From a virus, in IMG/VR virus record IMGVR_UViG_3300031539_000004, positions 1-64,000 of that record: a stretch of 64,000 nt of DNA, one strand, 5' to 3'. Position numbers and translations under genes: made by a program. Of the stretch, positions 2,869 to 60,933 are shown piece after piece. The stretch's first letter is position 1. The number at the start of each line of letters is the position of its first letter. The notes under the pieces are model-generated. The model saw only the letters and a list, made by a program, of their open reading frames with translations. It was not told the origin of the DNA and did not search any database.

Positions 2869-2902
2869 TGTAGTCGCTTCCGCTACACCGGCATGGTACG
2901 TT
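2869..2902 (+). promoter_or_regulatory. Operator (GTAG-N9-CTAC) overlapping -35, with -10 TACGTT
   Basis: TGTAG tcgcttccg CTACA at 2869-2887; TACGTT at 2897-2902; ATG 6 nt downstream. Confidence 0.75.
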
Positions 2903-2908
2903 GTGGGC

Positions 2909-3145
2909 ATGGAGAACACCCCGAACCCCGAGACCGAGGAGTACCTCTACGAGGTGCTCATCCCCGCCGAGGTGGAACTCAGCGAACGCTTCGCTTGGAA
3001 CCACGAGACCCACGGCTTCGACTGGACCGGCACCGACGCCGAGCGCGCCGAGATGGACCGGCTGCGTGACGAGATCGCACGCCACCCGGTCATCGTCGCC
3101 GAAGACCGGCTGATGATGAGGGCCGAAGCGAGGATGAACCGATGA
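2909..3145 (+). CDS. Hypothetical protein (leaderless)
   Basis: ATG 6 nt after the -10 box, no SD; ATGA overlap with the next ORF. Confidence 0.65.
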   Translation: MENTPNPETEEYLYEVLIPAEVELSERFAWNHETHGFDWTGTDAERAEMDRLRDEIARHPVIVAEDRLMMRAEARMNR

Positions 3146-3339
3146 GCGCCACCAACGCACCCATGTTGATCGCAGACCGTCACGACGGGCGGGCCACCGA
3201 GATGCACTCGATCGGCTCGAAGCCCCTCGGCGCTGGTCGCCGGAAGGCCGCTCAGCAGAAGCGCAAGGGCATCCGCCGAGCGCAGCGCCGCCGTGAAGGT
3301 CAGGCGTGGAAGTCAGCGGACCGCGACGGCGAGCTGTGA
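3142..3339 (+). CDS. Small basic hypothetical protein
   Basis: Coupled start; Arg/Lys-rich. Confidence 0.5.
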   Translation: MSATNAPMLIADRHDGRATEMHSIGSKPLGAGRRKAAQQKRKGIRRAQRRREGQAWKSADRDGEL

Positions 3340-3350
3340 AAGGCCCGGCC

Positions 3351-3575
3351 ATGAGCGATCACCTTTACGCCGCCCGCGAGTACGCGGAGGCCATCGACCA
3401 GCCCGACATGAGCGACGCCGACGCCCTCGCGATGTGGGCAGACAACCTCGTAGACGACCACTGCGACGGCGGCGAGCACATCGATAGCCTCGCCGAGATC
3501 GCCGACGACCTCGAGGCGATGGGCGCAACGGAGGACGCCGCTCGCTTCCGTGAGATCATCCCCACCCTCGGCTGA
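3351..3575 (+). CDS. Small acidic hypothetical protein
   Basis: ATG at 3351 after AAAGG; typical phage codon use. Confidence 0.55.
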   Translation: MSDHLYAAREYAEAIDQPDMSDADALAMWADNLVDDHCDGGEHIDSLAEIADDLEAMGATEDAARFREIIPTLG

Positions 3576-3601
3576 GAAGCCGCCAGCGGGCGAGCCCTCG
3601 G

Positions 3602-3620
3602 TGTAGTGTCCCGAACTACT
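3602..3620. promoter_or_regulatory. Operator copy upstream of VUT cassette
   Basis: TGTAG tgtcccgaa CTACT. Confidence 0.65.
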
Positions 3621-3638
3621 CCACCGAGGGGGGAACCC

Positions 3639-4202
3639 ATGACCAAGAGGACCATCGCCGGGTGGGCAGCCTTCGCTGCTTTCGTCGGTACCGTCTACGC
3701 CGCCAACTGGGCGCTCGAGACCTACGAGATCATCGACCTGCCCCTCACCGGGCTGACCGCCCCGGCCGGTGTCTACTTCGCCGGTCTGGCGTTCGGCCTC
3801 CGCGACGTGGTCCACGAGACCCTTGGCCGGCGGTGGGTCGCCCTCGCGATCATCCTCGGCGCTTCGCTCAGCTACGTCATCTCCGACGGGGCCGAGATAC
3901 CCGGCGGGCACGTCACCATCGCCGTCGCCTCGGGTATCGCCTTCCTCCTAAGCGAGCTCGCCGACCTCGCGGTGTACGACCCGCTGCGCGCTCGGCGATG
4001 GTGGGCGGCCGTGATCGCGTCGAACGCTGTTGGGGCCGTGGTCGACTCGGCGCTGTTCCTGTGGCTGGCCTTCGGGTCGCTCAACTTCATCGAGGGCCAG
4101 ATCGTCGGCAAGATCGCCATGATCCTCCCCGTCCTGCCGCTCGTGTGGCTCGCCCGCCGCTACCTGCTCCCCGGGGATGAACGGCCCGGAGAAGCGCAAT
4201 GA
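3639..4202 (+). CDS. VUT-family (YhhQ-like) queuosine-precursor transporter
   Basis: About 6 TM helices with VUT motifs: AANW, PAGVYFAGLAFGLRDVVHETLG, ASGIAFLLSELADLAVYDPL, SNAVGAVVDSALFLWLAFG. Confidence 0.85.
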   Translation: MTKRTIAGWAAFAAFVGTVYAANWALETYEIIDLPLTGLTAPAGVYFAGLAFGLRDVVHETLGRRWVALAIILGASLSYVISDGAEIPGGHVTIAVASGIAFLLSELADLAVYDPLRARRWWAAVIASNAVGAVVDSALFLWLAFGSLNFIEGQIVGKIAMILPVLPLVWLARRYLLPGDERPGEAQ

Positions 4203-4555
4203 GCGGCCACTCAGCCCACCCTGTCGCCGGGATGGTGGCCTTCCCTCACGACGGGGTCCAGTTCGAAGTGGCGTGCGAGGCCCTCTGCCCCTTCGCCGAC
4301 GAGACCGACCGCCACGCTCTCGTCATCGAGATCGCTGGTGGTTCGGGAACCATCGAGGCCGGGTCTCTGGCCGACTACCTCGCCAGCTACGCCGACACCA
4401 AGATCTCGGCCGAAGATCTGGTCGTCGCCGTCGCGAACGAGATCGCGGCGCAGCTCGAGGAGGATCTCGGTGCGCCCCCCGGGCTGGTCACGGTCACCAC
4501 CACCGTCACGGTCGCGGAAGGGCGGGTGAAGCTCACGGCGGTGTCCTGCCAGTGA
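4199..4555 (+). CDS. QueF-like T-fold protein (7-deazaguanine pathway)
   Basis: CP…D catalytic pair (LCPFADETD), IEAGSLADYLASY resembling QueF VESKSLKLYL, and ISAE resembling the H/S-E motif; context beside VUT. Confidence 0.7.
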   Translation: MSGHSAHPVAGMVAFPHDGVQFEVACEALCPFADETDRHALVIEIAGGSGTIEAGSLADYLASYADTKISAEDLVVAVANEIAAQLEEDLGAPPGLVTVTTTVTVAEGRVKLTAVSCQ

Positions 4556-5190
4556 TCTACCTGACCACCGGGAACACTCAGGCGCTGAAGGCCGGCATCG
4601 AAGCTCACCCCGACCTCCTCGGGCTGCTCGTCACCCCCCGCACCTATCGGCGAGCCGGTCATCCTGTGGATAGGTGGACGTGGGCGGCTGACAACGACTG
4701 CTTCAATGCCGGCGACGAGTTCAACCGCGACGCCTGGCTGAGCTGGCTTGACCGGATGACCCCCGCCGCCCGCGACCGGTGTCTCTTCGCCGTCGCCCCG
4801 GACGTGGTGGGCGACTGGTCGGCGACCCTCGAGCGGTCCCTCCCCGAGCTCGGCGAGGTGCGCTCCCTCGGCTACCGGGCCGCGCTGGTCCTCCAAGACG
4901 GCCTCACCGGCCCCGACGAGGTCCCGTGGTCCGAGGTGGACGCCCTGTTCGTCGGCGGCACCGACGACTTCAAACTGAGCGCCGAGGCGGCCGCTGTGGT
5001 GGCCGTGGGCGCGGCCCGAGGGTTGTGGGTCCACATGGGCCGGGTGAACAGCCGACGCCGAACCTTGGCCGCCGCCCGGATGGGCTGTGTTTCGGTCGAC
5101 GGGACCCACCTCGTATTCGAAGGCCCGAGCGCCGTACCGACCGTTCTCGGGTGGGCGCGCGAGGCGACGAACCAAGGTCGCCTGTTCTGA
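4552..5190 (+). CDS. TGT/DpdA-like deazaguanine DNA transglycosylase
   Basis: GTG start with GTGA overlap; motifs WAADNDCF, APDVVGD, VLQDG, LFVGGT, WVHMGRVN, SVDGT resemble a TGT-like barrel (HxLG and SxDS equivalents); context. Confidence 0.6.
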   Translation: MIYLTTGNTQALKAGIEAHPDLLGLLVTPRTYRRAGHPVDRWTWAADNDCFNAGDEFNRDAWLSWLDRMTPAARDRCLFAVAPDVVGDWSATLERSLPELGEVRSLGYRAALVLQDGLTGPDEVPWSEVDALFVGGTDDFKLSAEAAAVVAVGAARGLWVHMGRVNSRRRTLAAARMGCVSVDGTHLVFEGPSAVPTVLGWAREATNQGRLF

Positions 5191-5217
5191 ACGGCGGGGC
5201 GTCGTAGCATAGGAGCC

Positions 5218-6920: not shown

Positions 6921-6931
6921 GGCGGTGACCC

Positions 6932-15690: not shown

Positions 15691-17525
15691 TGTGGCATGG
15701 ATACGGCTACCTCACCCGCGGCACCGACCGAGTGGAGATCTGGAACAACGACCGGGTCCTCCACTACCTCCAGGGCGACCCGCTCGGCCTCACCGGCTCA
15801 CCGCCCGTCAACGGGCTGAAGCACAAGACGACCAGGGTCGAGGTCAACTGCGGATGCACCACGCTGCGGCCCCTCTACTGCGAGAAGGGGTCCGGCACCG
15901 ACGGCGCGTACCGGTCGCCCGAGCTGGACGGCGCACCGTGGTACGACCCTGACGTTCCCGAGTCGGCCGAGTTCGCCGGGCTCATCGTGGAGACCATCGA
16001 GGGGTTCGACTCGGTCGTCCGACGCACCGTCACCGACGCCGCGATCCGAGGCGGATCCCTTGGCCCGCAACGCCTCGGGGCGCGGACCCTCACCGTCACC
16101 GGCTGGCTGCGCGCGAAGACGTGCTGCGCCGCGGAGTACGGCCTCCGCTGGCTCGAGGCGGCGCTCACCGGGGGGGCGTGCGACGACTGCGCTCTCGGCG
16201 AGCTGTCGATGTTCCGGTGTTGCCCACCCGATGACGAGGGCGGCTACTTCGAGCAGGTCCCCCCCACCGCTCAGTTCGACCCGCAGACCCCTGGGACGCT
16301 CACCGTCACCGACCTCGGCGGCGGGATCTACGACTTCGTCTACGACGACTTCGATCGCAGCAACGTGGTCTCGTTGCAGGGCGGCGCTGTGAACAACGCT
16401 CTCGGGTTCCTGCCCGTCACCCTCAACGGGGCCGACCCCGAGGGCATGGCCCAAATCAGCATCGGAGCTGACCCCGCCGGCCCCGAGATCAACTTCTCGA
16501 TCTCCTACGGGCTCATCACCGCTCAGGCTGACGTGGCGTCCGGTACTGGCCGGGAGCTGTCGCTCACGATCGACACGAACATCGACCTCGGGCTCCCCGT
16601 CGAGAACCAGACCCGCGACGACCTCGCCGCCGCGCTCGCCGACTGGATCACCCTCTACGGCGACGGCGCGGTCATCGCAGCCAAGCCGTTCTCGAACGGG
16701 CGGGCCTACACCGCGAAGGATGGCCCCGACCCAGCGAACTACGACCGGGAGGTGCTACGCCTCGGGCTGGTCGACGGCCCCACCGTCATCGAACGGAACG
16801 GGACCTGCTGCGACTCGTGCGGATGCACCGACCTCCGGGTCCAGTTCACCCTCGCATCGGAGTCGCCGTTCATCTTCGGGCCGATCGACTGGTGCCTCGA
16901 GGACGCCAGCTTCCTCACCGAACCCGAGAACGAATACTGCCTCAGCCTGTTCTGTGGCGACTGCCCCGAGGCGGCCGACCCGTTCTTCCGGCTCACCTGC
17001 GGTGGCGACACCATCTTCGCCCCGCCCCCGGTGTTCAACCCGATCATCACCTGCTACTGCGACCCGTGGGTCCAGTACCGGATGTGCTGCTCGCTGAGCA
17101 ACGAGGCCGACTGGAACGAAGCGTCGACCGTGATCCGCGTCGAGGCCGGCAACGCGACGTTGCGCCACATGAAGATCCAGGCGTTCATCAACCCGTTCGG
17201 CGATGACCGGCCATGCCCGTGCGATCCCGACGACCTGTTCTGGCTCTGCCGGGACCCGTGCTCGGTCATCGAGATCGCCGAGCTTCCCTCGGGGTCGATC
17301 CTCACCGTCGATTCCCGCTCGAGGATCTCCACGCTCGAGCTGGCCGGCGGCGGTTCGCAGGGCGGCACCCGGTTCATCACCGGGGAGCGGGGCGTCCCGT
17401 TCGAATGGGTCGACCTCGCCGCCTGCTCGACTGTCTGCTTCCTCATCACCGTCGACGCGAACCACTCGAGCCAGACCAAGGTGTCGGTCGGCGTCGCTGA
17501 GAGGTTCCAGGCCAGTGGCGGTTAG
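15690..17525 (+). CDS. Minor tail protein (distal-tail/Dit-like) with inserted domain
   Basis: First gene after TMP; GAPWYDPDVPESAEFAGL and LGARTLTVTGWL…EYGLRWLEAAL actinophage minor-tail motifs. Confidence 0.75.
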   Translation: MWHGYGYLTRGTDRVEIWNNDRVLHYLQGDPLGLTGSPPVNGLKHKTTRVEVNCGCTTLRPLYCEKGSGTDGAYRSPELDGAPWYDPDVPESAEFAGLIVETIEGFDSVVRRTVTDAAIRGGSLGPQRLGARTLTVTGWLRAKTCCAAEYGLRWLEAALTGGACDDCALGELSMFRCCPPDDEGGYFEQVPPTAQFDPQTPGTLTVTDLGGGIYDFVYDDFDRSNVVSLQGGAVNNALGFLPVTLNGADPEGMAQISIGADPAGPEINFSISYGLITAQADVASGTGRELSLTIDTNIDLGLPVENQTRDDLAAALADWITLYGDGAVIAAKPFSNGRAYTAKDGPDPANYDREVLRLGLVDGPTVIERNGTCCDSCGCTDLRVQFTLASESPFIFGPIDWCLEDASFLTEPENEYCLSLFCGDCPEAADPFFRLTCGGDTIFAPPPVFNPIITCYCDPWVQYRMCCSLSNEADWNEASTVIRVEAGNATLRHMKIQAFINPFGDDRPCPCDPDDLFWLCRDPCSVIEIAELPSGSILTVDSRSRISTLELAGGGSQGGTRFITGERGVPFEWVDLAACSTVCFLITVDANHSSQTKVSVGVAERFQASGG

Positions 17526-18647: not shown

Positions 18648-19112
18648 ATGAGCTTCCGAGTGGAGGGCCAGTCTTTCGCCGAGTGGGTCGAGAAGATGGA
18701 GGGCGACCTCCGGTACCTCTACAAGTGCTGCGAGGGCGGGCTGGGCGGTAGCTGGACCGTCATCGCGTCGAACTCCTCCTACGACTGGTCTGGCGACGGC
18801 TACTCCGAGGTGTGGACGTCCGAGCTCGGGACGGCCCGACTGGTCGAGGTGTTCGCTTCGGGTGTGGCCGGCGCTGGCGGCACGGTATCGGTCACCCACT
18901 CGGGCCTCGGCGTTGTCGCGTCGCTGACCTTGGTGGGGCTGACCGGCGAAGTCGCGCTGAACCCGACGGTGGTCTTCAACCCCGGCGAGCGCCTCCAAGT
19001 GCTCACCCCCTCGGGTGGCGGCGTCAGCGGGCTGACCGTCCAACTGCTCTTCGAAGGCGACGTGCGAGCATCCGGCGGGCTCAACATCTACCGGGGTGAA
19101 GCGCCCGCATGA
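18648..19112 (+). CDS. Minor tail protein, paralog 1 of MSFR…YKCCE triplet
   Basis: N-terminus shared with the next two genes; beta-rich C-domain. Confidence 0.7.
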   Translation: MSFRVEGQSFAEWVEKMEGDLRYLYKCCEGGLGGSWTVIASNSSYDWSGDGYSEVWTSELGTARLVEVFASGVAGAGGTVSVTHSGLGVVASLTLVGLTGEVALNPTVVFNPGERLQVLTPSGGGVSGLTVQLLFEGDVRASGGLNIYRGEAPA

Positions 19113-28839: not shown

Positions 28840-28940
28840 GGCCCCGAGGGCGGGGTGAGCGGGGAAGGAATCCGAGGTTTCTTTCCGGCCCCCCCGGAAG
28901 GCCAGTAGTGGCGCGGGTTTCCGAGACCCCCCATCTGGCG

Positions 28941-28975
28941 CTGTAGTTGACTCGACTACAGATGCACGGTATCTT
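28941..28975 (+). promoter_or_regulatory. Operator/promoter
   Basis: CTGTAG ttgactcga CTACAG; -35 TTGACT, 17 bp, -10 TATCTT; ATG 6 nt downstream. Confidence 0.85.
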
Positions 28976-28981
28976 GTGGAC

Positions 28982-29227
28982 ATGGAAACCACCACCACCC
29001 CCACCACCGAAGAGGTCACCGAAGCCCTGCGCTCGGCCCTCATCGACGCCGGCTCCGACGCCCACGGCATCGCCGATCAGCTCGCCGAGGACTTCGGCGT
29101 GAAGGTCACCGGCTGGACGCAGGCCCTGAGCACGACCCTCACGGTCACCCTCCCCGCCGACATCGACGCCGACGAACTCGCCGAGATCGCCGACATCGCC
29201 GACAGCATCGACTTCGGCCCCCGCTGA
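28982..29227 (+). CDS. Hypothetical early protein (leaderless)
   Basis: Starts at the predicted +1; similar in composition to 34439-34714. Confidence 0.65.
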   Translation: METTTTPTTEEVTEALRSALIDAGSDAHGIADQLAEDFGVKVTGWTQALSTTLTVTLPADIDADELAEIADIADSIDFGPR

Positions 29228-30443: not shown

Positions 30444-30673
30444 GCTGGGGAGCGGGCGGCCGACCCGGTGGCGGGGGGCCAGCGGCGACTCCTCGCAGCT
30501 TCGCCGGGTGGAAGCACCGGTCATCATCCTGCGGCAGCTCGATGGTGGTCCGGCCGCTACACCGAACCGGTTGCCTGGCTGTAGTTCGCAGAGCTACGGT
30601 GGGGGCCGACGCCGAGCTGGCAGGAGTTCCTGTCACACCCCCTGCGTAGGGTGGACGTATTAGGAGGATCCGA

Positions 30674-31797: not shown

Positions 31798-31895
31798 CCG
31801 TAGCCGATCCGACAACAAGACCGGGTGGATGCCCCGTAGCGTGAGGTGCTACGATCCACCTTCCGACCAAGCAACCTGATGACAAGGAGATGCCC

Positions 31896-34402: not shown

Positions 34403-34432
34403 TTGACTCCCTGTAGCCTTATCGGTTACAGT
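34403..34432 (+). promoter_or_regulatory. Sigma-A-type promoter with overlapping operator variant
   Basis: TTGACT-18 bp-TACAGT; CTGTAG ccttatcgg TTACAG; ATG 6 nt downstream. Confidence 0.8.
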
Positions 34433-34951: not shown

Positions 34952-34982
34952 GGCGTAGCTCCAGCGGCTACGCTCGGGGCCG

Positions 34983-36560: not shown

Positions 36561-36951
36561 GGAGCGGCAGCTCCGGTCGATCTCCGAGAAGGCGTTGCAG
36601 AGCTGGATCATCGATCTCGGCAAGATCGGCGGCTGGCGGATCTGTCACTTCCACGACTCGCGCCGGCAGGTCGCGCCCGGCGTGTTCGTCGGCGACAAGG
36701 AGGCGAAGGGGTTCCCTGACACGGTTCTGATCCGGCCGCCCGAGATCATCTTTTGGGAGCTGAAGCGTGAGGGGCCTCCTTCGGCTGCGAAGCCGACGCC
36801 CGAGCAGGAGCGATGGCTGGCCGAGCTCAGCGCGTGTGGTCTCGAGGCGCGGGTGGTGCGACCGTCGGACTTCGAGGGGTACGTCAAGGAGCGGCTCCTT
36901 CGCCCCCGCGAGGGCGGGCTGACCACGGTCCCGAGGGATCCCCCGCTGTAG
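36538..36951 (+). CDS. VRR-NUC (PD-(D/E)xK) nuclease
   Basis: SEKALQ…GFPDTVL…WELKRE…PTPEQERWL…VVRPSD. Confidence 0.85.
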   Translation: MAKRLTNEERQLRSISEKALQSWIIDLGKIGGWRICHFHDSRRQVAPGVFVGDKEAKGFPDTVLIRPPEIIFWELKREGPPSAAKPTPEQERWLAELSACGLEARVVRPSDFEGYVKERLLRPREGGLTTVPRDPPL

Positions 36952-36981
36952 TTGCATCGGCTACACCGGATCGGGTAGGGT
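36946..36981 (+). promoter_or_regulatory. Operator/promoter
   Basis: CTGTAG ttgcatcgg CTACAC; -35 TTGCAT, 18 bp, -10 TAGGGT; ATG 6 nt downstream. Confidence 0.8.
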
Positions 36982-40697: not shown

Positions 40698-40718
40698 TGT
40701 AGCTGGTCCGGCTACAGT
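40698..40718 (+). promoter_or_regulatory. Operator/promoter
   Basis: TGTAG ctggtccgg CTACA; -10 TACAGT; ATG 7 nt downstream. Confidence 0.75.
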
Positions 40719-43740: not shown

Positions 43741-45045
43741 TCAGAAGTCGGTGTCGATCGCCGACGGGAACAGCTCGCCGGTCTCGGCGTTCACTACCTC
43801 GAGGCCCGAGTGGTCGATGTATCGCTGGCACATCATGTCGACCCACTTCGGTTCCAGCTCCATGAGCGCGGCCCGCCGGCCCGTCTTGTGCGCGGCGATG
43901 AGCAGCGACCCGGACCCGCCGAACGGGTCGTAGGCGAGCTCGCCCGAGTGGAGGTGGTTCTCGAGCGGTTGGACGTAGATGGAGACCGGCTTCTGCGTCG
44001 GGTGGGCGGTCTTGTCGTCGGTCTTCGATGACATGATGTGCTTCGGCGAGGGGGCCTCCCACACCGTCGACCGGTTGCGATCGACGTGGAACGGGACGGT
44101 GCGGCCCTTCTTGCGGGCGAACCAGGCGGGCTCGTGCTGCCAGTGGTAGTAGCTGCGGCCGAGCGAGAACCGTTGCTTGACCCACACGATCTGCTGGAGG
44201 ATCTCGTACCCGGCGTCCTCGAGGCCTTCCCACACGACGTGCGCGTGGCTGGCGGCGTGCCAGACGAGGGCGATGGTGGCGTCGCTGAGCCGGTACGCCT
44301 CACGCCAGTCGTCCTCGTCGTCGTTCGCGACGTGATCGGTGGACCCGGGGGCGAGCTGGGGGAGCGCGGCGTCGCGCCAGGTGTGGTCCAGTTCGATGCC
44401 GTAAGGCGGGTCGGTGAGCATGGCGACCGGGCGCTCGCCGTCGAGGAGGCGGGCCACGTCGGCGGCGTCGGTGCTCGAGCCGCAGAGGAGCCGGTGTTCA
44501 CCGCCGAGGATCCACAGGTCGCCGAGCTTGGTCGTCGGGATGGTGGGCGCGGCGGGGACCGCGTCCTCGTCGCCCTGGCCGGCCCGGAACCCGTTCACCT
44601 TGTAGAGCAGGTCGGCGAGGTCTTCGTCGGCGAACCCGGTGCCGATGAGCGAGTCGGCGTCGGCGATGTCTTTCAGGATGCGGGCGAGGACCGGGTCGTC
44701 GTAGGTCGCGAGGTCGGAGGTCCGGTTGTCGGCGACGAGGATCTTGGCGGCTCGCACGTCGTCTACGTCGAGCCAGATGACCGGGACCTCCTTGAGGCCG
44801 ACCCGGCGGGCGGCGAGGTACCGGTGGTTCCCGGCGAGGATGCGGCCCTTGGCGCGGTCGCCTCGGGGCGTCTGGCAGACGAGCGGGGCGGTGAACCCGT
44901 TCTCGCGGATCGACTCGGCGATGACTTCGACGTTCCCTTCGCGCGGGTTGTCGGGGTGCTGCTCGAGGGCGTCGAGGTTCACGAAGGCCAGCTCGTACCC
45001 TTCGGCCAGGGAGTCGGCGAGCTCGGTGGGGATCGTGTCGGTCAT
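43741..45045 (-). CDS. ParB-like nuclease domain + N4C/N6A DNA methyltransferase fusion
   Basis: LEQHPDNPR…SIRENGF…ILAGNHR…ADNRTS (ParBc); TDPPYG; HPTQKP; YDPFGGSGS. Confidence 0.92.
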   Translation of the reverse strand: MTDTIPTELADSLAEGYELAFVNLDALEQHPDNPREGNVEVIAESIRENGFTAPLVCQTPRGDRAKGRILAGNHRYLAARRVGLKEVPVIWLDVDDVRAAKILVADNRTSDLATYDDPVLARILKDIADADSLIGTGFADEDLADLLYKVNGFRAGQGDEDAVPAAPTIPTTKLGDLWILGGEHRLLCGSSTDAADVARLLDGERPVAMLTDPPYGIELDHTWRDAALPQLAPGSTDHVANDDEDDWREAYRLSDATIALVWHAASHAHVVWEGLEDAGYEILQQIVWVKQRFSLGRSYYHWQHEPAWFARKKGRTVPFHVDRNRSTVWEAPSPKHIMSSKTDDKTAHPTQKPVSIYVQPLENHLHSGELAYDPFGGSGSLLIAAHKTGRRAALMELEPKWVDMMCQRYIDHSGLEVVNAETGELFPSAIDTDF

Positions 45046-45131
45046 GGCCGTCGAGGGTACACGGGGCGGTTGGTTGCGTAGCCGATCGGGTGACGGTACG
45101 GTCCGACGGCGGCGCGACAGGAGGAGACCGA

Positions 45132-45380: not shown

Positions 45381-45446
45381 GGGTTCTTCGGGGCGGTTCT
45401 GGAAGAAGGCGCTGACCAGCGTCTTCGCGCGGCTCGCCGCCCCGGT

Positions 45447-45480
45447 TGTAGTTGATCCGGCTACACCGGTCGGGTACGGT
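45447..45480 (+). promoter_or_regulatory. Operator/promoter
   Basis: TGTAG ttgatccgg CTACA; -35 TTGATC, 17 bp, -10 TACGGT; ATG 6 nt downstream. Confidence 0.85.
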
Positions 45481-46491: not shown

Positions 46492-46520
46492 TTGCAAGGC
46501 GTAGCCGATGCGGCTACGGT
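46492..46520 (+). promoter_or_regulatory. Promoter with the perfect palindromic operator
   Basis: TTGCAA-17-TACGGT; CGTAGCCG-ATG-CGGCTACG at 46500-46518. Confidence 0.85.
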
Positions 46521-46564: not shown

Positions 46565-46879
46565 ATGACACCCACAGCCACCGACACCGACGAGATCGTC
46601 GTCGGCGACGTGCTCGGGCTGGTGGAGATCGCCGCACTCCTCGAGGTCCAGAAGCGCACGCCACGCATGTGGCAATTCCGCGGGCTGCTCCCGGCCGCCG
46701 ACTTCGAGTCGGTGAACCATCAGCCCGCATGGAAGCGCCGCACCGTCCTGAAGTGGGCGGCGACGACCGACCGGCTCCCCGAGTCGGGCGCACTGGACGC
46801 CGAGGCGAAGCGGTATCTCCCGAAGCCGAAGAAGGCCAAGGCCCCCGCCAAGAAGGCAGCGGCCAAGGACAAGAAGTGA
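46565..46879 (+). CDS. Small HTH DNA-binding protein (AlpA/excisionase-like), candidate repressor
   Basis: VLGLVEIAALLEVQKRTPRMWQFRGLLP…PAWKRRTVLKWA; Lys-rich tail; SD AAGGAG. Confidence 0.75.
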   Translation: MTPTATDTDEIVVGDVLGLVEIAALLEVQKRTPRMWQFRGLLPAADFESVNHQPAWKRRTVLKWAATTDRLPESGALDAEAKRYLPKPKKAKAPAKKAAAKDKK

Positions 46880-47091
46880 GCGGCCCGATCGTCGGGCTGA
46901 GCGCCGAACGAACCGACGAGGTACTCGCGGAGGCCCGCGCCGCTGTTGCGGAAGGGGCGTCCACGATCGCCGAGGTGACCGCCGCGCTCGGCCAGGATGA
47001 GGGCGTCGTCACCGCCGCGCTGCTCCGGTTGCGCGACGCCGGCGACGTCGTTCTCGATCGACAGACCCGCACGTTCCGAGTGGAGGACTGA
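46876..47091 (+). CDS. Small winged-helix-like protein
   Basis: TIAEVTAALG…VTAALLRLRDAGDV pattern; GTGA overlap. Confidence 0.5.
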   Translation: MSGPIVGLSAERTDEVLAEARAAVAEGASTIAEVTAALGQDEGVVTAALLRLRDAGDVVLDRQTRTFRVED

Positions 47092-47093
47092 CC

Positions 47094-47474
47094 ATGACCA
47101 TGCCGATCGACTGGCTCGAGTTCGTTGTGCTGGCGCTCGCCGCCTACCGCATCACCCGGTTCCTGCTCTTCGACTCGCTCCTCGGGATGGGGCTGGTCGG
47201 CAAGGAGTTCGCCTCACCGCTCGCCGCGAAGGTTGACCGGTTCGGCTACGACGAGGAGGGCAACGACCGGTCGTGGATCCGCGGCAAGCTCTCTGACCTG
47301 CTCACCTGCCCGTGGTGCCTCGGGTTCTGGATCTCGGCCGCGGCGTACTTCTCGTGGCTCGGCGCGACCGAGGGGTGGGACTTCATTGTCGACACCCCGC
47401 TGCCCGTTCACGGGCTGGTCGTCTTCGCGATCGCCGCGGTCCAGGGGTACCTGAACAGCAGGCCGGGCGCGTGA
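47094..47474 (+). CDS. DUF1360-like membrane protein
   Basis: LALAAYRITRFLLFD…LLTCPWCLGFWIS. Confidence 0.75.
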   Translation: MTMPIDWLEFVVLALAAYRITRFLLFDSLLGMGLVGKEFASPLAAKVDRFGYDEEGNDRSWIRGKLSDLLTCPWCLGFWISAAAYFSWLGATEGWDFIVDTPLPVHGLVVFAIAAVQGYLNSRPGA

Positions 47475-47783: not shown

Positions 47784-48167
47784 GTGCCCGATTGGGAGGA
47801 CTGCGTCGCCGCCGTCGCCTTCGTTTCGGGGTTCGGCCAGGCCGAGCTGACCGGCACCGCTGGCCCGCAGAAGCGGCCGCTGACGCAGTGGCGTGGCGTG
47901 ATGGCGTACATCGCCGTCGATGAGGCGGGCGTCGGGCTGGCCGAGCTCGCCGCCCGATGTGGCCGCTCGAGGTCGTGGGCGACGCAGACCGTTCACCGGA
48001 TCGAACGCCAGCTCGATCGAACGTCGGCCCACTACGACCCGGGTCTGGTCGTCGCGATCGGTCGGGCACGCCAAGCGATCGGTCTCGGTGTGCAGGCGAA
48101 GATGGGCGACCAGCTACCCGAGAACGTGGTGAGCTTGGCGGCGCACCGCCGAGCGAGGAGCGCCTGA
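47784..48167 (+). CDS. HTH protein (DnaA C-terminal/TrpR-like)
   Basis: MAYIAVDEAGVGLAELAARCGRSRSWATQTVHRIE. Confidence 0.5.
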   Translation: MPDWEDCVAAVAFVSGFGQAELTGTAGPQKRPLTQWRGVMAYIAVDEAGVGLAELAARCGRSRSWATQTVHRIERQLDRTSAHYDPGLVVAIGRARQAIGLGVQAKMGDQLPENVVSLAAHRRARSA

Positions 48168-49401: not shown

Positions 49402-51009
49402 ATGGATCAGCACGAATCAGACCGGGCCGCGACCTTCAGGGTCTTGGGCGAGATCGCCGGCGAGCGGGACCGCCAGATCGATCGGCATGGCCACAACCCT
49501 GACAAGGACGACCGGCAGCCGATGTCATGGTGGGGCTGGCTTCTGGCGCGGCGGGCGACGGATCTGTCGTGCCCGGTGACCGCGGTGGTCGCCGATGACC
49601 CGCGCCGGCAGCTCCTCGAGATCGCCTCTATCGCCGTCGCCGCGCTCGAGTCGCTCGATCGTCGGGTCGCGAAGGTCGATCCGCTGGGGGCGACGTTGCT
49701 CGGCTGCTCTTGCGGGTTCCCGGCTCAGCTCCCCGACGATCACCGGGCCGGGTGCATCTACTCGGGCTACCCGCCCGAGGTCGAGGTCAACGGCCACACC
49801 TACCTGAACCCGCACTACTTGACCGTGACCGAGGACTCCGAGCTGGTGGTCGATGATCTCGCCGAGGGGATGCCTCCGGTGATCGTCGCGTCGTACACGC
49901 CGGCCGACGAGGTGGACCGCGGCGAGGATCAGCCTCCGAGCCTCTTCGAAGCTCACCACTACCGGACCCACGACCGGCCGTGGCCTCCGTACCCGCACAA
50001 CGATCCCGACGCCGGGAAGGAGCCGGGCGACCCGCCGCGGAAGACCTTGCCTGAGATGGGGGGACCGAAGACGTGACCGCACCGATGGATGACCCGGGCC
50101 TCCTCACCGAAGCCGAGCACAAGCTGATGGACCTGCTCGGCGAGGTCGCCGACCGGTTCCGCATGGCGATCCTCGACTCGTCCACCGAGGACGGGAACGC
50201 CCGAGATCACCGCCCGGAGATCGCTGACTTCGATTGGAACGAGGTCGCCGCGATCATCCACCAACTGCAGGCGAAGGTGATGAGCCAGGCCGCGGCGCGC
50301 ACCTACCCTGACCGGTACCGGCGACTCGGCGGCCCACCCCCGAGGATCGCCGAGCACCACTACCGCCCGACCAAGGAGACCGCCGATGGCTGACACCTCC
50401 CGCTACTCGCGACCAGGAGCCGACGACGTTCCCGAGGTGACCGTGATCCCCGGCCCGAGCTCGGCGAGCTGCGCGTGCGGCCACCACCTGAATCAGCACA
50501 ACGGGATGACCACTCACCCCGACGACGGCGGCGTGATCGCCAGCGGCTACTGCGTCGCCTGCGACTGCAGCGACTTCGACGCGACCCGCCGAGGCGAGCT
50601 GATCACCCCGAGCTACACCGAGGGCGAATGGGTCGACGTGTTCGAACGGTTCCTCGCCGACCGCCACTGCATCCTCTACGGCCAAGCGCGCCCGTGCTCC
50701 TCCGACGCCGAGCGCCGAGCCGTCGCCGAATGGTTCGCCGCCGAGGTCATCGCCGCCGCCGGCGAGGTCATCGAGGGCTGATCCGTGACCGGGACGCTGA
50801 TCGAGGATGATGAACCCGAGCGACCCGAGGGGCTGCTCGAGGTGGGCCTCTGGTGCAACGTCTGCCTGCTCCCGTCGGCCGCGGTCGCCCCGGTGACGCT
50901 CACCGCTGGTCCTGGCGGCCGGGTGATCGGCCAGATGGTCGTGACGATCTGCCTCGATTGCGGGGCCGTTCTGGACGGCGACGGCAACCCGAAACCAGCG
51001 ACGATCTGA
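49402..51009 (+). CDS. Four orphans (49402-50076, 50073-50393, 50386-50781, 50785-51009)
   Basis: SD sites and overlapping starts/stops; several CxC/CxxC motifs. Confidence 0.55.
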
Positions 51010-51057
51010 ACAACCCCGTGACCAGCGTCTTTGCACCCCCGATCCGGCCCGCAAGAC

Positions 51058-51086
51058 TGGACGGGTGTAGTCGGACCCGCTACAGT
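51058..51086 (+). promoter_or_regulatory. Operator/promoter
   Basis: TGGACG-17-TACAGT; TGTAG tcggacccg CTACA; ATG 7 nt downstream. Confidence 0.8.
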
Positions 51087-52477: not shown

Positions 52478-52507
52478 TTGCATGCCTGTAGCGGGATCGG
52501 CTACGGT
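52478..52507 (+). promoter_or_regulatory. Operator/promoter
   Basis: TTGCAT-18-TACGGT; TGTAG cgggatcgg CTACG; ATG 7 nt downstream. Confidence 0.8.
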
Positions 52508-54751: not shown

Positions 54752-54780
54752 CGTCGTCGGATCGGCTACAGTCCCCGGCG

Positions 54781-56358
54781 ATGCATTGGGAACTGCTCCA
54801 CGGCGACTGCCTCGCCGAGATGGCGAAGCTCAAGGACGGGTCCGTCGACGCGGTGGTCACCGACCCGCCGTATGGGCTGAGCTCGCCCCCTGACATCGCT
54901 GAGGTGCTGCGGCACTGGCTGGCCGGCGAGACCTACGAGCATCGCGGGAAGGGGTTCATGGGCCGCGAGTGGGACTCGTTCGTGCCGGGGCCGGCGGTGT
55001 GGGCCGAGGCGATGAGGGTCCTGAAGCCGGGCGGTCACGCCGTCGTGTTCGCGGGGACCCGGACGATGGACCTGATGTCGATGGCGCTCCGACTCGCCGG
55101 CTTCGAGATCCGTGACACCCTCATGTGGCTGTACGGGCAGGGGTTCCCGAAGTCCCACAACGTCGGCAAGGCGGTCGACAAGATCCTCGGGGCCGAGCGC
55201 GACGAGGAGCTGGTCCCGACGAGGGCCGGGAACGCTGAGCGGCGAGGCGAGGGCGACCAGGGCGCGACGTATGGCGATTCGCACGGCGGGTTCACGTCGA
55301 TCTCCGAGCCGGTCACCGAGGAGGCCGCGGCGTGGGAGGGGTGGGGCACCGCGCTGAAGCCGGCGTGGGAGCCGATCATCCTGTGCCGGAAGCCGATGGG
55401 GCAGACGACCGCGGCGTCCGTGCTCGAGCATGGGACGGGGGCGATCAACATCGACGGCTGCCGGTTGGGCGGTGAGGTCCCGCAGGTGACGCAGGGCAAG
55501 GGCGCGCTCTTCGACGGGTTGAAGGAGACGGCGTCGACCGCGCCGCAGCAGTCGCACCCGCATGACGCCGGCCGGTGGCCGACGAACGGTGCGCTGTCGC
55601 ACTCCGAGGGCTGCGAGCTGGTCGGCACGAAGGAGGTCGAAGGAGCGCCGGGTACTCGGTGTTCGTTCTGGCCCGACGAGTGCGAGGGCCACGGGCACGA
55701 GCGGGCGCAGTCGGGCGTGACGAAGCACGGGTCGCCGCCGCCGGGATGGGTGCCGCCGGGGATGAAGAAGGTCTCGACGGGCACGCACTACCCGGCCACG
55801 CGCGGCGAGGGCGGGATCGGCAACCCCGGCCATGCCGGCCAAGAGGGCCTCGAGGATCAGCAGCCGAAGACGGAGATCGTGGAGGACTGGTCGTGCGTCG
55901 AGGGTTGCCCGATCGCGATGCTCGACGCGCAGACCGGTGTCTCGGGGCCCGGCTACTTCCCTCCGGTGCGCCAGGCCGGCACCAAGAATGTGTACGGGAC
56001 GTGGGCGTCGGTCGACGCACCCGAGAACGAGCGGTTCACGACGCCGGGTGGCGGGTCGAGGTTCTTCTACTGCGGGAAGGCGTCCCGAGTGGACCGCGAC
56101 TACGGGCTGCCGGCCGGCGAGGAGAACAAGCACCCGACGGTGAAGCCTCTCGATCTGATGAGGTGGCTCGTCCGGTTGGTCACCCCGCCCGAGGGGACGG
56201 TCCTCGATCCGTTCACCGGCTCGGGGTCGACGGGCGCGGCGTCGCTGCTCGAGGGGTTCGACTTCGTTGGCTGCGAGCAGGACCCCGAGTTCGCCGAGCT
56301 CGCCCGCCAGCGGATCGGCAAGGCCGCCGAGTCTGGACATCAGGCCAGCCTGTTCTGA
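54781..56358 (+). CDS. N4C/N6A DNA methyltransferase (beta-class layout) with large internal insert
   Basis: GDCLAEM…VTDPPYGL; WLYGQGFPKSHN; GTALKPAWEPI; HPTVKPLDLMRWLVRL; LDPFTGSGST. Confidence 0.93.
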   Translation: MHWELLHGDCLAEMAKLKDGSVDAVVTDPPYGLSSPPDIAEVLRHWLAGETYEHRGKGFMGREWDSFVPGPAVWAEAMRVLKPGGHAVVFAGTRTMDLMSMALRLAGFEIRDTLMWLYGQGFPKSHNVGKAVDKILGAERDEELVPTRAGNAERRGEGDQGATYGDSHGGFTSISEPVTEEAAAWEGWGTALKPAWEPIILCRKPMGQTTAASVLEHGTGAINIDGCRLGGEVPQVTQGKGALFDGLKETASTAPQQSHPHDAGRWPTNGALSHSEGCELVGTKEVEGAPGTRCSFWPDECEGHGHERAQSGVTKHGSPPPGWVPPGMKKVSTGTHYPATRGEGGIGNPGHAGQEGLEDQQPKTEIVEDWSCVEGCPIAMLDAQTGVSGPGYFPPVRQAGTKNVYGTWASVDAPENERFTTPGGGSRFFYCGKASRVDRDYGLPAGEENKHPTVKPLDLMRWLVRLVTPPEGTVLDPFTGSGSTGAASLLEGFDFVGCEQDPEFAELARQRIGKAAESGHQASLF

Positions 56359-56371
56359 CAGACTGGTCGCC

Positions 56372-56686
56372 ATGACGTTCGAGGAGTGGCTGACGACCGG
56401 GATCGCCGAGGGCTGGTGCAGCGAACCGGGGTGCGCCGCGCATGACGGGCCGCCGCTCACCGAGGCCGAGGCCGAGCTGTACAACGCTCACCCCGACGAC
56501 TGGCCCGGCGGGTTCGATCCGTTGGACCGGTGCCTGCCGGTGGTGCGGCTGTTCGGGCCGGATGGTCCCGAGGCGGTCCCGTCGATGGTTCCCGAGGGGA
56601 TGGTCGGGGTTCCGGTGGCGGCGAGGCCCGAGGGCGCGGGGGCTGGTTCCCCGTCGCTGGGGCTGGTTCCCGAGGCCGAGGGCTGA
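56372..56686 (+). CDS. Hypothetical protein
   Basis: WCSEPGCAAHDG…DRC motif. Confidence 0.5.
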   Translation: MTFEEWLTTGIAEGWCSEPGCAAHDGPPLTEAEAELYNAHPDDWPGGFDPLDRCLPVVRLFGPDGPEAVPSMVPEGMVGVPVAARPEGAGAGSPSLGLVPEAEG

Positions 56687-56705
56687 CCCCGAAAGAATCT
56701 TCCCG

Positions 56706-56740
56706 CTGTAGTTGATCTGACTACACCGGCATGGTACGTT
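56706..56740 (+). promoter_or_regulatory. Operator/promoter
   Basis: CTGTAG ttgatctga CTACAC; -35 TTGATC, 17 bp, -10 TACGTT; the segment CTACACCGGCATGGTACGTTGTG is identical to 2883-2905. Confidence 0.85.
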
Positions 56741-56746
56741 GTGTAC

Positions 56747-57968
56747 ATGAAGAACACCGAAGCCCCCACCACCCGCAAGGCCCAAGACGTCACCGAAGGC
56801 GACGCCCTCGCTAACGGCGGCACGGTCACCCGGAACTACCGCCGCTGCGGCCGGCAGGTCATCAGCTACACCGACCGCAACGGCAACCACGCCTCGATGG
56901 TGAAGGCCCCCGCCGCCCCGGTCGCCCTCGCCCGCTGAATCGCCCACCAACCCACCACCAAGGAGAAGCCGACATGGCCCCCAAGACCCCCCGACTCGTA
57001 GAGGTCGACCCGCCGCCCCGCGGCTCGTCGCTGCCCACCGGTCACGACCACCCGAACCTCGAGGCCGCGGTCGCTCGGTCCCGCAAGCGGACCAAGATGG
57101 CCGACCTCGGCGAGCACCCCCTCGCCGTCGACTTCGACTACCACGGCCACACCGAGGCCGAGCTGCGGATGGCCTTCGCGGCGGTGGTCAGCGATGAGAA
57201 CTGGAAGCTCGGCGTGAACGCCTGCTTCCCGGCGCTCAACTCCGACGAGCGGAAGCTGGTCGGCGACGCCCTCATCTTTTACTGCGGCAGCCCGGCCGAG
57301 GTGTACGACGTGGACGGCATGGTCTTCGTGGTCGCCGCCGGGTACTACGCCTGCATCGGGTCATGACGATGACCCGGCCGATCGTGACCAAGGCCCCGTG
57401 CGCGAAGTGCCCCTTCCGCAAGGACGTGCCGATCTACCTCCGGGCTGGTGCCCGCGAGGAGATCGCCCGGGCGTTGGCCGACGGCCGCGGGTTCCCGTGC
57501 CACGCCACGGTCAACTACGACACCGACGAGGAGGACGAGGAGGGCGCGACCATCCCCGACCAGTCGGCCGCTTCGGAGTGCGCTGGCGCGGTCGCCGCCC
57601 TCGAGCTGTCGGGCGGCTCGTCGCAGCTTGCCCGCATCGCTGAACGGCTCGGCGACCTCGACCCCGACCGGCCCGGCCACCACGACGACGTCTGGCCGCT
57701 CCATGAGTGGCCGCTGCTCGCCGCGGGCGCGACCGGCGACAACCCCGAAGAGGAGGAGTACGAGGGCGACACCTGCTCGGTCGTGAACGCTGGCTGCGAG
57801 GCCCCCGCCGGGTACCTCGGGACGGGTGGCGCGGTGGTCCACGGCGTCGAGCACACCGACAACTACTGCCCCGGGTGTGGCGACCCGGTCTGCGAGACCT
57901 GCATGGCCGATGAGGAGCTGTGCCCGACCTGCCTCGAGTACGAGGCCGACATGGAGGAGGTGAGCTGA
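56747..57968 (+). CDS. Early operon of three orphans (56747-56938, 56974-57366, 57363-57968 Cys-rich)
   Basis: Leaderless first gene; PCAKCPFRKD…FPCH…ECAG motif in the third. Confidence 0.6.
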
Positions 57969-60879
57969 TGCCACGCCTACACAACACGCTGGTCGTGATC
58001 GCGGCGTTCGTGACGCTGGTCGCCGCGGGGGCCCCGTCCCTGCCCGGCTGGTCGAAATGGATGTGCGGCGTAGTCCTAGCGGCTACGGTGCTCCGAGCCG
58101 CGAACGTTGAGCACGACGTCAATGAAGGAGGCCCCGAGTGGGGAACTGGATGACCGTGATGATCGAGGGCGAGATCCCCGCCGATGAGGTGGCTCCGCTC
58201 ACCGCTTGGCTCCAGGGGCCGCGGTTCGATGGCGGGTCGATGGACGACCCCGAGTGGGCGCGGCTTGGCCCGCTCACGATCTCGGGTGGTCTGGCCGGTC
58301 TCGGTTCATGGCCGGCCGAGACGGTGATGAGGATCGGGAACTGCTACGAGCGTGACTACACGCCCGAGTCGGTCGCCGATCATCTCGGGCGTGCGCTCGA
58401 GGCCGCGCCCGGCATGGACCTGAAGGTTCACTGCGGCGGCGACTACGAGTCGCTCGAGGTGGTCGCTTCGGTGCTGGCGCGGGGCGGGACCGTCGGTGTC
58501 GGCGAGGCGGTGCGGACGGTGATCCCGCCGATCCCGTCGGAGCAGGTCGAAGCGAACCTGATGAGGGCGCTGACTCAGGGGGTCGACCGGTGAAGCGGTG
58601 CCTGCAGTGGTTCGGGTACGGGTGGGCGATGCCTCCCGGCTGGCGTCACCGTGCCAAGCGTCGCGAGGAGGCCCGCCGTGCCGCGTCCCGATGACCGGCA
58701 TCTGATCTCGGTGAACCGGACCCGCGAGGGTCTGTTCTCCGCTGCTTGCACCTGCGGGTGGGAGGCCGGCCCCGCGGTCGCGGTTCATCCCGAGCTCGCC
58801 GACGCGGTGAATCTGCACGGGTCGGCGAACCCGAGGGAGGCTCCGACGCTCTCCGATTGCGGCGACTGCGGCGTCGAGGCCGGTGAGCCGCACCTCGAGG
58901 GCTGCGACGTGGCCCGGTGCTTGGTGACTGGTCGCCAGCAGTTGTCGTGCGGCGGTTTCGATCATCCCGGCCAGAGCTGCGGGGTGGACGTCTGGACCGG
59001 CCAGTGGCCCGGCGAGGCTGAGGCGGTCCGGTACGGGCTGTGGCGTGATGATCTGGTGGGCTTCGAAGGGGCGCAGGTGCCGGATGTGAGTCGGCTGATG
59101 TCGGTCGGCCGGTGGGACCAGGACCGCGCTGAGTGGGTCATCGACGGCGAGGAGTCGGGCTGATGGGTTGGTGGGCGCACTTGGCCGATGACCGAGGCAA
59201 CGACGAGGGGTCGTGGAACTTCACGCACAACACGAACGGGATGATCGCCGAGGCGCTGCAGGCGGCGACGGGCGAGACGGTCGAGGAGTGCGGTGGCCCG
59301 CTCGGGCCGGTGATCGGGCCGGCGTGGTGGGAACGGCTCAACGGGATGACCGGCCCCGAGGGCGGCGAGTTCCTCGACACGATCGTGAAGGCGCTGATGG
59401 CCGACCCGGTCCGGTTCGAAGCGATGAACCCGGAGAACGGGTGGGGGTCCTACGAGTCGCTGTTGAAGGTGCTGGCCGACATGCGGGACTCGGTGCCCGA
59501 GTGGCCGTGCGTCTGGCAGGCGAGCGGATGAGCGCGCCGACCCCGGAGGTGGTGTCGGTCCCGGCGGTGAGGCTCGCCGACGGTTCGATCCATGTGGGGC
59601 TGCCCGAGAACCTGACCCGCGACCACGGTGGCGGGGTGTGGCTGCTGGACGAGGGCGGCGTCGGCTACTACGGGTCGACCAACGCTGTGCGGGTGATGGC
59701 CGCCGAGCTGGTCGAGGACGCTCAGGGTGAACGGGACCGGGCGGGCGAGTCGATGCAGACCGAGGCGGCCGTGGACTGGCTCGAGGAGGCGACCGAGCAG
59801 GCGGCGGGGCTGCGGCTCCTGGCCGACGAGATCGATCAATGGGAGCGCGACCGTGTTCGGCCGGCCGGGTTGTGCGGGTGTCCGCTGTGCCCGGATTCGT
59901 CTCACGGCGGCGAGCTCGGGGAGGTGGAGTGATGGGGCGAGCTGAGCGACGGAACCAGGCGAGGCGGCATCGGCCCCCGAGGCGGGTGCAACGCGACCGG
60001 GCGCTGCGGCGACGGATGACCGAGGCCGAGCTGGTCTCGGTGTTCCCGGCCGGCGCTCACAACAACAGGCGCGACATTGAGCGGGCGATGCAGGCGTCCC
60101 ACGACGCGCTGATCGCCGAGCTCGGGGCGCGGCGGCGCTCGGGGGTGACGTGGATGGTCTACGAGCGGGCGCAGTGGGCCGCGCCGATGCGTGACCTGTT
60201 CGCCGACCCCGACTTCGATGGGCTGCGGACGTTCCTCGAGGGTGACGACGTGGTGCTGGTGGTCGCGTTCGCCGAGGCCGACCCCGAAGCCGATGACCAC
60301 CAACCCAAGGAGCAGACCGATGAGTGAGACCGCAGCGCAGATCAACGACCAGATGGACGAGCACGGCATCGAGTGGGGCGTCCGCTACCGCGACCCCGCA
60401 TCCGGGTTCGAAGGCGAGCCGACGGGCCTCTACTTCTTCAAGCACGGCTGCCTGCGGGTGGCGTTGCGAGGGGTGAACCGGACGACCGGGGAGCCGGCCG
60501 AGTTCACGTTCGACGCGCCCGAGCTGGTCGCGGTGGAGACGGCTGAGCCGGTGCCGGCTGGCTCGAGGAACGGCGGCCCGCACGATCTGGCTCCGGTCGG
60601 TCGGCCATCGATGCCGCGGCTGGCTGGCCCGCAGCGCGGCTGATGGCGGTCGCCCCGGCGTTCTTCGAAGCTGAACGTAAGGCGCTCGGCCTCGAGCGGT
60701 GGCCCGACGCCGGGGAGCGGATCACGTTCCTACGGCGTCGGAGCACCGAGTGGGAGACCGGCGAGGTGGTGCGGGTGTGGGTCGGCATCGAGGTGATGAT
60801 CGATCTGGCCGAGGGCGCTGCGTTGTGCCCGGCGCTCGGCGACGAGTTCGTGGCCCGACCTTCGACGCGCATCGAGTGA
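57968..60879 (+). CDS. Run of small orphans (57968-58153, 58150-58593, 58590-58694, 58678-59163, 59163-59531, 59528-59932, 59932-60327, 60320-60643, 60643-60879)
   Basis: Continuous chain of overlapping start/stop codons. Confidence 0.5.
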
Positions 60880-60900
60880 GGTGCGCTGTGCTCGCCGGTA

Positions 60901-60933
60901 GTAGTTGCTTCGGCTACAGACGGCGGGTAGGGT
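60901..60933 (+). promoter_or_regulatory. Operator/promoter upstream of helicase
   Basis: GTAG ttgcttcgg CTAC; -35 TTGCTT, 17 bp, -10 TAGGGT. Confidence 0.8.

Follow-up and report, generated by a model that had tools for sequence, protein, structure and literature searches.

One inverted repeat occurring many times across an actinophage genome has been described before. In the temperate phage phiC31, conserved inverted repeats are said to form the operator of the c repressor, which reportedly also regulates its own gene; when counted for comparison, the phiC31 genome was found to hold about 15 copies of a palindrome in which CCTACTCAC is followed, with no spacer, by GTGAGTAGG. The Cluster O mycobacteriophages (Corndog and its relatives) carry 34 copies of a 17-bp dyad of 7-3-7 build, TGTTCGG-N3-CCGAACA, for which a dimeric DNA-binding protein was predicted, and no integrase was found in them (PMC4351075). 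About one third of these copies lie in coding DNA and most stand away from promoters, so the authors excluded control of transcription initiation (PMC4351075). Here a further dyad, GTAG-N9-CTAC, is described from a stretch of 64,000 nucleotides (nt), called the window below, that forms the first 64 kb of IMG/VR virus record IMGVR_UViG_3300031539_000004, a 128,695-bp genome of 69% G+C, from an uncultured phage of a high-GC bacterium, that CheckV rates as complete; positions beyond the window are given as genome positions.

The dyad resembles that of Cluster O in being a 17-bp unit present in more than 30 copies over the genome of a phage in which no integrase was found, but its sequence is different, all exact copies are intergenic, and nearly all lie on predicted promoters at fixed registers. 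As in phiC31, one inverted repeat recurs across the genome (here 35 exact copies, all intergenic); phiC31, however, is temperate and has an integrase and a large repressor, whereas neither tyrosine nor serine integrases were detected here when the Phage_integrase and Resolvase families were searched in all six frames over the whole genome, and the phage appears to be lytic. The stoperators of Cluster A phages, bound by L5 gp71, are asymmetric 13-mers that are oriented with transcription and lie inside transcribed regions (PMC4351075). They too are many copies of one repressor site, which silence the phage genome globally, but the present site is symmetric and sits on the promoter, upstream of predicted starts. 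An earlier note on the window, made from the sequence alone, had treated the motif as unrecognised. That holds for the sequence itself, which was not found in the papers searched, but not for the general kind, which these actinophage repeats already represent; the present case differs in its sequence, its strict integration into promoters in three registers, its link to leaderless starts and a specific candidate binder.

All 15 exact sites that the earlier note had listed in the window are present (Table 1), against 0.12 expected from 100 dinucleotide shuffles, in which the largest count was 1. The whole 128.7-kb genome holds 35, compared with three for a reversed-pattern control and 0.3 in second-order Markov simulations. 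Gene calls from our own codon-usage caller gave about 204 genes and 87% coding DNA, leaving 12.7% of the genome intergenic, and every one of the 35 exact sites falls in this fraction (P ~4e-32), an enrichment whose absence the note had named as a possible argument against its proposal. A site is present in 28 of the 60 intergenic gaps of at least 50 bp, its orientation agrees with the local gene strand, and none occurs among the tail genes between 5.2 and 28.2 kb, which had been described as free of it. When all 4- and 5-mer palindromes with spacers of 0–12 were counted without bias, TGTAG-N9-CTACA and GTAG-N9-CTAC ranked first. In a symmetrised weight matrix the full unit extends to 19 bp, YGTAGY-N7-RCTACR, with a symmetric information profile and seven central positions of low information. 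The convergence of spacers on GTAGCCG-NNN-CGGCTAC that had been proposed is therefore only weakly true, as positions 5–7 carry 0.35–0.96 bits. Among five near copies previously listed, those at 34413, 31800 and 54753 (one mismatch each, all intergenic) outscore the weakest exact site and bring the total to about 38, while those at 45078 and 53628 are weak; genome-wide, one-mismatch matches stand at chance level (14 versus 19 expected).

Scans of IMG/VR and metagenomic contigs with the DNA pattern yielded chance matches in low-GC contigs only, some of them the T-arms of transfer RNAs (tRNAs). These T-arms (GTAGGTTCGAGTCCTAC), seen in two unrelated low-GC contigs (L151 and L152), also fit GTAG-N9-CTAC, so pattern scans of other genomes will catch tRNA genes.

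The sites overlap predicted sigma-70-type promoters in three registers. In class A (n = 17), the -35 hexamer occupies positions 5–10 of the site (TTGACT, TTGCTT, TTGATC or TTGCAT; TCGCTT in two), a -10 of the form TANNNT or CATNCT follows 16–18 nt after it, and the dyad centre falls near -31. In class B, which comprises 14 exact sites, the near copy at 34413 and probably that at 54753, the TAC of the -10 (TACAGT, TACGGT or TACGAT) comes from the CTAC half, a -35 (TTGCAA, TTGCAT, TGGATG and similar) lies 3–5 nt 5' of the site, and the centre is near -18. Class C, represented at genome positions 104189 and 121892, places the -10 at site positions 5–10 (TAGGGT, TATACT), with TGGATC or TTCAAC 17 nt upstream of it and the centre near -9. 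Classes A and B had been described in this form before, but as the only two geometries, to which class C now adds a third. A convincing promoter is lacking at just two sites, 3603 and 93289. The registers lie 12–13 and about 10 bp apart, and the geometry is fixed with respect to the -35, the -10 and the start codon. A strict scan for E. coli-type promoters between 28 and 48 kb returned just two matches, both of them on sites (28943 and 34413).

At no fewer than 18 of these promoters (14 of class A and at least four of class B), an ATG that opens a real open reading frame (ORF) without a ribosome-binding site (RBS) lies 39 or 40 nt (class A) or 26 or 27 nt (class B) from the first G of the site, which is 6–7 nt past the -10. 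These promoters appear to start leaderless messenger RNAs at the ATG, with a geometry like that of actinobacterial leaderless mRNAs. The ORFs concerned open with ATG-(A/G)NG-AAC and continue into an A/C-rich, G-poor stretch (Met-Met/Thr/Lys-Asn-Thr...), as seen in the window at 2909, 28982, 36988, 40726, 45487, 51094, 52515 and 56747, elsewhere in the genome and in relatives. This shared start may serve to signal leaderless translation or may belong to the initially transcribed region. The proteins encoded downstream of sites are mutually unrelated, which means that gene duplication does not account for the repeats. The promoters at 28940–28984 and genome 75125–75169 (minus strand; site 75150), whose genes are unrelated, share an identical run of about 45 bp, and further near-identical class A subfamilies are formed by 2870, 56708 and 107281 and by 116849 and 119039; such near-identity suggests copying or gene conversion between promoters.

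Dyad symmetry, a fixed 9-bp spacing and outer half-sites that are strongly specified while the centre is free together form the signature of a protein bound with two-fold symmetry, and because the position of the dyad varies with respect to the hexamers, GTAG and CTAC would not belong to the recognition sequence of RNA polymerase itself but to a separate module. We give roughly an even chance to the proposal that a single regulator encoded by the phage, most likely g72, the product of the gene at 46565, has YGTAGY-N7-RCTACR as its operator and binds it in two-fold symmetric fashion. Such a regulator would specify only the outer six bp of each half-site. Since the centre is free, a promoter hexamer can be built into it, and the permissive 7 bp would house the -35 in class A or the -10 in class C, while in class B the right half-site would give the TAC of the -10. 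In each register, the bound regulator would sit on a core element of a sigma-70 promoter of host type and exclude RNA polymerase; each of the three overlaps the footprint of the polymerase, and the simplest outcome that they would share, we infer, is steric repression. Because the most symmetric site stands at the head of its own operon, the regulator would accumulate after infection and then damp the roughly 38 promoters together, in a negative feedback.

The search for the binder covered 143 small proteins, which were compared with Pfam in two pooled searches, and six-frame family searches. Besides a probable small terminase subunit (helix-turn-helix matches at 66266–66346), it detected four DNA-binding candidates, namely g72, g73, g76 and an XRE protein (Table 1), while the six-frame Pfam search returned no match to WhiB, to region 4 of extracytoplasmic function (ECF)-type sigma factors or to HTH_17. 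We rank g72 first as the most likely binder on the basis of its family, its model and its linkage to sites. The protein matches phrog_597, "DNA binding protein", although its own Pfam scores remain below threshold. A profile search gathered 546 clusters, and HTH_17 was matched by 27 of 81 aligned members and two MerR families by 18–21 of the 81. The model built from this 81-member alignment has a predicted local distance difference test score (pLDDT) of 84, and above 94 in the core; an earlier model from three sequences had been poor, and a fold search with it was uninformative. With the better model, Foldseek returned BldC, RacA, the DNA-binding domain of lambda gpNu1 and HiNmlR, at probabilities of 0.97–1.0 and E-values of 0.03–0.1. 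The helix-turn-helix protein that the earlier note had placed at 46565 thus has, by family profiles and model, a MerR-type winged-helix DNA-binding fold. A sequence search of the PDB with g72 alone gave no match, and no relatives were found in the bacterial genomes searched.

Small proteins of this kind are known from Actinobacteria and their phages. Gp36 of D29 is reported as a small MerR-like repressor of genes in a lytic actinophage (PMC12266134). Both Gp36 and Streptomyces BldC, the latter among the best structural matches, are like g72 in consisting of a small MerR-type winged helix with no effector domain. Classical MerR promoters offer another likeness, in that the class B dyad occupies the stretch between the -35 and -10 or overlaps them and the candidate binder has a MerR-type DNA-binding fold. 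The spacer is 17–18 nt here, however, and not 19–20, the dyad is shifted onto the -10, two further registers exist, and no coiled coil or sensor domain was found in g72, unlike in classical MerR.

The linkage between g72 and the motif extends well beyond this genome, in which the g72 gene follows the most symmetric site (46501). Two close g72 homologues, which share their source samples with the terminase relatives, each stand behind the same class B promoter, with its half-sites and -10 conserved and a different centre. An exact site lies at most 65 nt from the start of the g72 homologue, or over a start that is probably mis-called, in six of eight lineages, and in the other two the corresponding position holds a version with one or two mismatches; on two contigs (L171, of 12.6 kb, and L170), it is the only exact site present. 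The conserved sites adjoining g72 homologues are inverted repeats. The homologues (45–52% identity) form part of a conserved cassette, at 46565–47474 in the window, that consists of g72, an optional g73 and a membrane-type DUF1360 protein and is carried by L144, L146, L166 and L168–L171, distant high-GC phage contigs that include one of 251 kb. A proposed covariation of residue 35 in the g72 recognition helix with the operator was dropped, as L170 has Ala there and yet an exact site.

Independent relatives retain the motif at other promoters as well. Terminase relatives at 76–93% identity are found on short metagenomic contigs, one of which (L135, 12 kb, Logan run SRR22808005) has four sites, while two near-identical others (L136 and L137, from sample JGI 3300037339 and run SRR12667318) have two. 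All three show the class A/B layout and leaderless ATGA-N-GAAC starts. Orthologues at 33–76% protein identity retain a site in the corresponding position, for example those of genes 80057–80407 and 96139–96423, and across relatives the half-sites are kept while the centres vary. A look for the motif in related contigs, which had been suggested earlier, thus finds both motif and architecture at orthologous promoters, on independent contigs whose proteins are 33–79% identical to those of this phage. The motif is absent from a more distant relative, L138 (terminase 59%, 62% G+C). Its contig has two copies of TGTA(G/A)TTGTC-GTGGTACA, at 16003–16021 and 18882–18900, a TGTA-N11-TACA dyad with a -35-like TTGTC core, which may represent a divergent form of this system.

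The scope of the putative regulon is wide. Many ORFan genes sit behind sites, as do the methyltransferase gene that follows the near copy at 54753 and the UvrD-type helicase gene that follows 60901. The site at genome position 117669 serves a deoxynucleotide kinase-like gene together with a divergent leaderless gene, and class A sites at 93230 and 98581 head two long non-coding regions (genome 91292–93329 and 98318–100057). Structural genes are included too, with 107281 heading an operon that runs into the portal gene and 121892 followed by a small gene and then by the phrog_777 major head protein. With sites before capsid and portal operons, the putative regulon is not confined to early and accessory genes. 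The earlier suggestion that one dimeric regulator shuts off the early and accessory cassettes therefore survives in its core, since a dyad protein site on promoters, in more than one register, remains the best reading, but not in that restriction.

Several observations weigh against a two-fold-symmetric g72 repressor. The half-site centres are 13 bp apart, compared with the 10–11 bp usual for helix-turn-helix dimers, and the g72 model has no long dimerisation helix. BldC and D29 Gp36, small MerR-like proteins without a coiled coil, are described as binding direct repeats as head-to-tail multimers, and not palindromes (PMC5859096, PMC12266134), whereas an inverted repeat in about 38 copies is found here. 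Part of the link between g72 and the motif reflects the inheritance of one orthologous promoter, and g73, g76 and the XRE protein are also candidate binders. A simple shut-off of early genes fits poorly with sites that head structural operons, and a lysogenic repressor is without support, as no integrase was found. Sites before the capsid and portal operons make a plain early-to-late switch unlikely; a global brake, or silencing in a dormant state that requires no integrase, would suit the distribution better. A fuller picture is possible, although we regard it as rather doubtful: a BldC/Xis-like MerR-type winged-helix protein lacking a coiled coil would be the master regulator of an integrase-free phage and, by binding a 19-bp palindrome with a -35 or -10 built into its free centre, would gate nearly every promoter of the 129-kb genome, including the structural operons and the two long non-coding regions, as a global timing brake or in a dormant state. 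Its gene and its own site would be the ancestral unit, retained by a broad family of uncultured high-GC phages, and in the present lineage the operator would then have spread genome-wide.

The operator could instead be bound by another phage protein, which we think unlikely: the XRE protein, g73 or a small ribbon-helix-helix protein that escaped detection. In favour of the XRE protein, no other clear HTH_3 protein was seen in the genome, its operon is headed by the site at 104189, and XRE dimers typically bind palindromes. It has, however, no homologue but itself among 5.8 billion proteins, while the motif is conserved across lineages (a weak argument, given fragmentary assemblies), and it adjoins a methyltransferase and may be a local controller. 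The case for g73 is its coupling to g72 and its conservation in several relatives, but it is absent from L166 and L170, where the site still precedes the g72 homologue; g76, in turn, is absent from the motif-bearing relative L144. A host transcription factor that binds the palindrome and couples the phage promoters to a host signal is an improbable alternative. An apparently lytic phage would need no immunity repressor, and the phage binder is so far a candidate only; on the other hand, the conserved link with the g72 cassette, which extends to contigs whose only site adjoins that gene, indicates a phage protein, and we know of no actinobacterial factor with this site.

Equally improbable, in our estimate, is that the motif marks promoters for activation by a phage factor that recruits or re-aims the host RNA polymerase, in the manner of MotA of T4. 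Nearly all recognisable promoters carry the motif, those of structural operons included, and its class A position is that of a MotA box or a class II activator. Three registers on different faces, over the -10 or the start region, nevertheless suit a steric block and not a common activating contact, class B spacers measure 17–18 nt where MerR-type activation has 19–20, and the promoters already possess good -35 and -10 hexamers. Very improbable is a last reading, that promoter cassettes have spread by copy-and-paste recombination, as with T4-type promoter stem-loops, the dyad being a passenger or a DNA or RNA hairpin. Near-identical promoter subfamilies, such as 28943 and 75150 with their shared ~45 bp, a second repeat that accompanies class A promoters, and inner positions that are nearly always pairable on the sense strand if G-U is allowed would all agree with it. 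Yet the dyad persists through three different promoter contexts and in diverged relatives, even as its centre and flanks change, no T-run follows it, and the G-U bias is explained by the TTG of the -35 and the G before the -10. The dyad lies upstream of every predicted start and so is not in its own transcript; on these positions and the pairing analysis, the RNA hairpin was rejected.

Table 1. Palindrome sites in the window, candidate binding proteins and copies of the second repeat. Positions are those of the window unless marked as genome positions; promoter elements and leaderless starts are predicted.
Feature	Coordinates	Strand	Promoter elements	Downstream gene or remark
Site, class A	2870..2886	+	-35 TCGCTT 2874-2879; -10 TACGTT 2897-2902	Leaderless ATG 2909
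Site, no convincing promoter	3603..3619	+		20 nt 5' of RBS-led gene 3639
Site, class A	28943..28959	+	-35 TTGACT 28947-28952; -10 TATCTT 28970-28975	Leaderless ATG 28982
Site, class B	30581..30597	+	-35 TTGCCT; -10 TACGGT 30595-30600	Downstream gene uncertain
Near copy, one mismatch	31800..31816	+		Tandem pair with site 31836, 36 bp upstream of it
Site, class B	31836..31852	+	-35 TGGATG; -10 TACGAT 31850-31855	RBS-led gene 31896
Near copy (TTAC for CTAC), class B	34413..34429	+	-35 TTGACT 34403-34408; -10 TACAGT 34427-34432	Leaderless ATG 34439
Site, class B-like	34955..34971	+	Weak -35; -10 TACGCT 34969-34974	ATG 34983 (HNH-like protein)
Site, class A	36948..36964	+	-35 TTGCAT 36952-36957; -10 TAGGGT 36976-36981	Leaderless ATG 36988
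Site, class B	40699..40715	+	-35 TGGATG; -10 TACAGT 40713-40718	Leaderless ATG 40726
Site, class A	45448..45464	+	-35 TTGATC 45452-45457; -10 TACGGT 45475-45480	Leaderless ATG 45487
Site, class B, most symmetric (GTAGCCG-ATG-CGGCTAC)	46501..46517	+	-35 TTGCAA 46492-46497; -10 TACGGT 46515-46520	Heads g72 operon; conserved in relatives
Site, class B	51067..51083	+	-35 TGGACG; -10 TACAGT 51081-51086	Leaderless ATG 51094
Site, class B	52488..52504	+	-35 TTGCAT; -10 TACGGT 52502-52507	Leaderless ATG 52515
Near copy (GTCG for GTAG), probably class B-like	54753..54769	+	-10 TACAGT 54767-54772	ATG 54781 of DNA methyltransferase
Site, class A	56708..56724	+	-35 TTGATC 56712-56717; -10 TACGTT 56735-56740	Leaderless ATG 56747
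Site, class B	58070..58086	+	TGGATG upstream; -10 TACGGT 58084-58089	RBS-led gene 58138
Site, class A	60901..60917	+	-35 TTGCTT 60905-60910; -10 TAGGGT 60928-60933	RBS-led UvrD-type helicase gene 60969
g72, lead candidate binder	46565..46879	+		104 aa; MerR-type winged-helix protein, Lys/Ala-rich tail
g73, second candidate	46876..47091	+		71 aa; weak winged-helix match (PaaX-like); translationally coupled to g72
g76	47784-48167			Weak HTH_23 match
XRE protein	genome 104561-104800			79 aa; only clear Pfam HTH_3 protein in the genome
Second repeat	2826-2852, 45403-45430, 51009-51036; genome 64058, 75185, 80475, 85112, 93275, 98546, 107246, 116885

The second genome-wide repeat, of about 26 bp, reads AACAACnCCG-TGACCAG-CGTCTTTGC and occurs in either orientation, with a core of CGCTG-NN-CAGCG that is flanked by an A-run and, on the opposite side, by a T-run. 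Its core lies 34–35 nt (26 nt in two cases) 5' of class A sites and 48 nt 5' of the class B site at 51067, so that at most of these promoters it falls near -74 relative to the predicted start. The relative L135 also has it upstream of a class A site, and eight further copies occur at 69297–71990, in a 3.5-kb non-coding region adjoining the terminase gene. A role as terminator was rejected, as the stem is 5–7 bp with a fixed loop.

As for the rest of the genome, tail genes and the tape measure protein occupy 5–28 kb, and a replication initiator, a DnaB-type helicase and an endolysin lie at 37–44 kb. The large terminase is at 66.6 kb, the portal at 109 kb and the major head protein (phrog_777) at 122.4 kb. 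There are at least five DNA methyltransferase genes, at 43741–45045 (minus strand), 54781–56358 and genome 64779–66101, 87736–89382 (minus strand) and 106421–107248, and in two of them a ParB N-terminal domain is fused to the methyltransferase. ORFs of phage-like codon usage are absent from three long stretches, genome 68475–72052, 91292–93329 and 98318–100057. Megablast with 12 kb of the genome matched no cultured phage, and tblastn with the head-tail adaptor protein gave distant matches only, none to a close cultured phage; no close relatives emerged from IMG/VR when the capsid protein, g72 or the XRE protein served as query. DNA contigs of four sequencing runs matched the phage only as identical fragments, apart from noise.

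Almost nothing is known of gene regulation in large uncultured actinophages, and the Cluster O repeats have been without an assigned function since 2015, a puzzle for which the present case offers a lead. A conserved repeat that sits on promoters at fixed registers and is tied to one small DNA-binding gene provides a directly testable pair, a 104-aa protein and a 19-bp site. If confirmed, this pair would show that a single operator with a permissive centre can merge with either promoter hexamer, and it would supply a compact set of repressor, operator and leaderless promoter for high-GC hosts.

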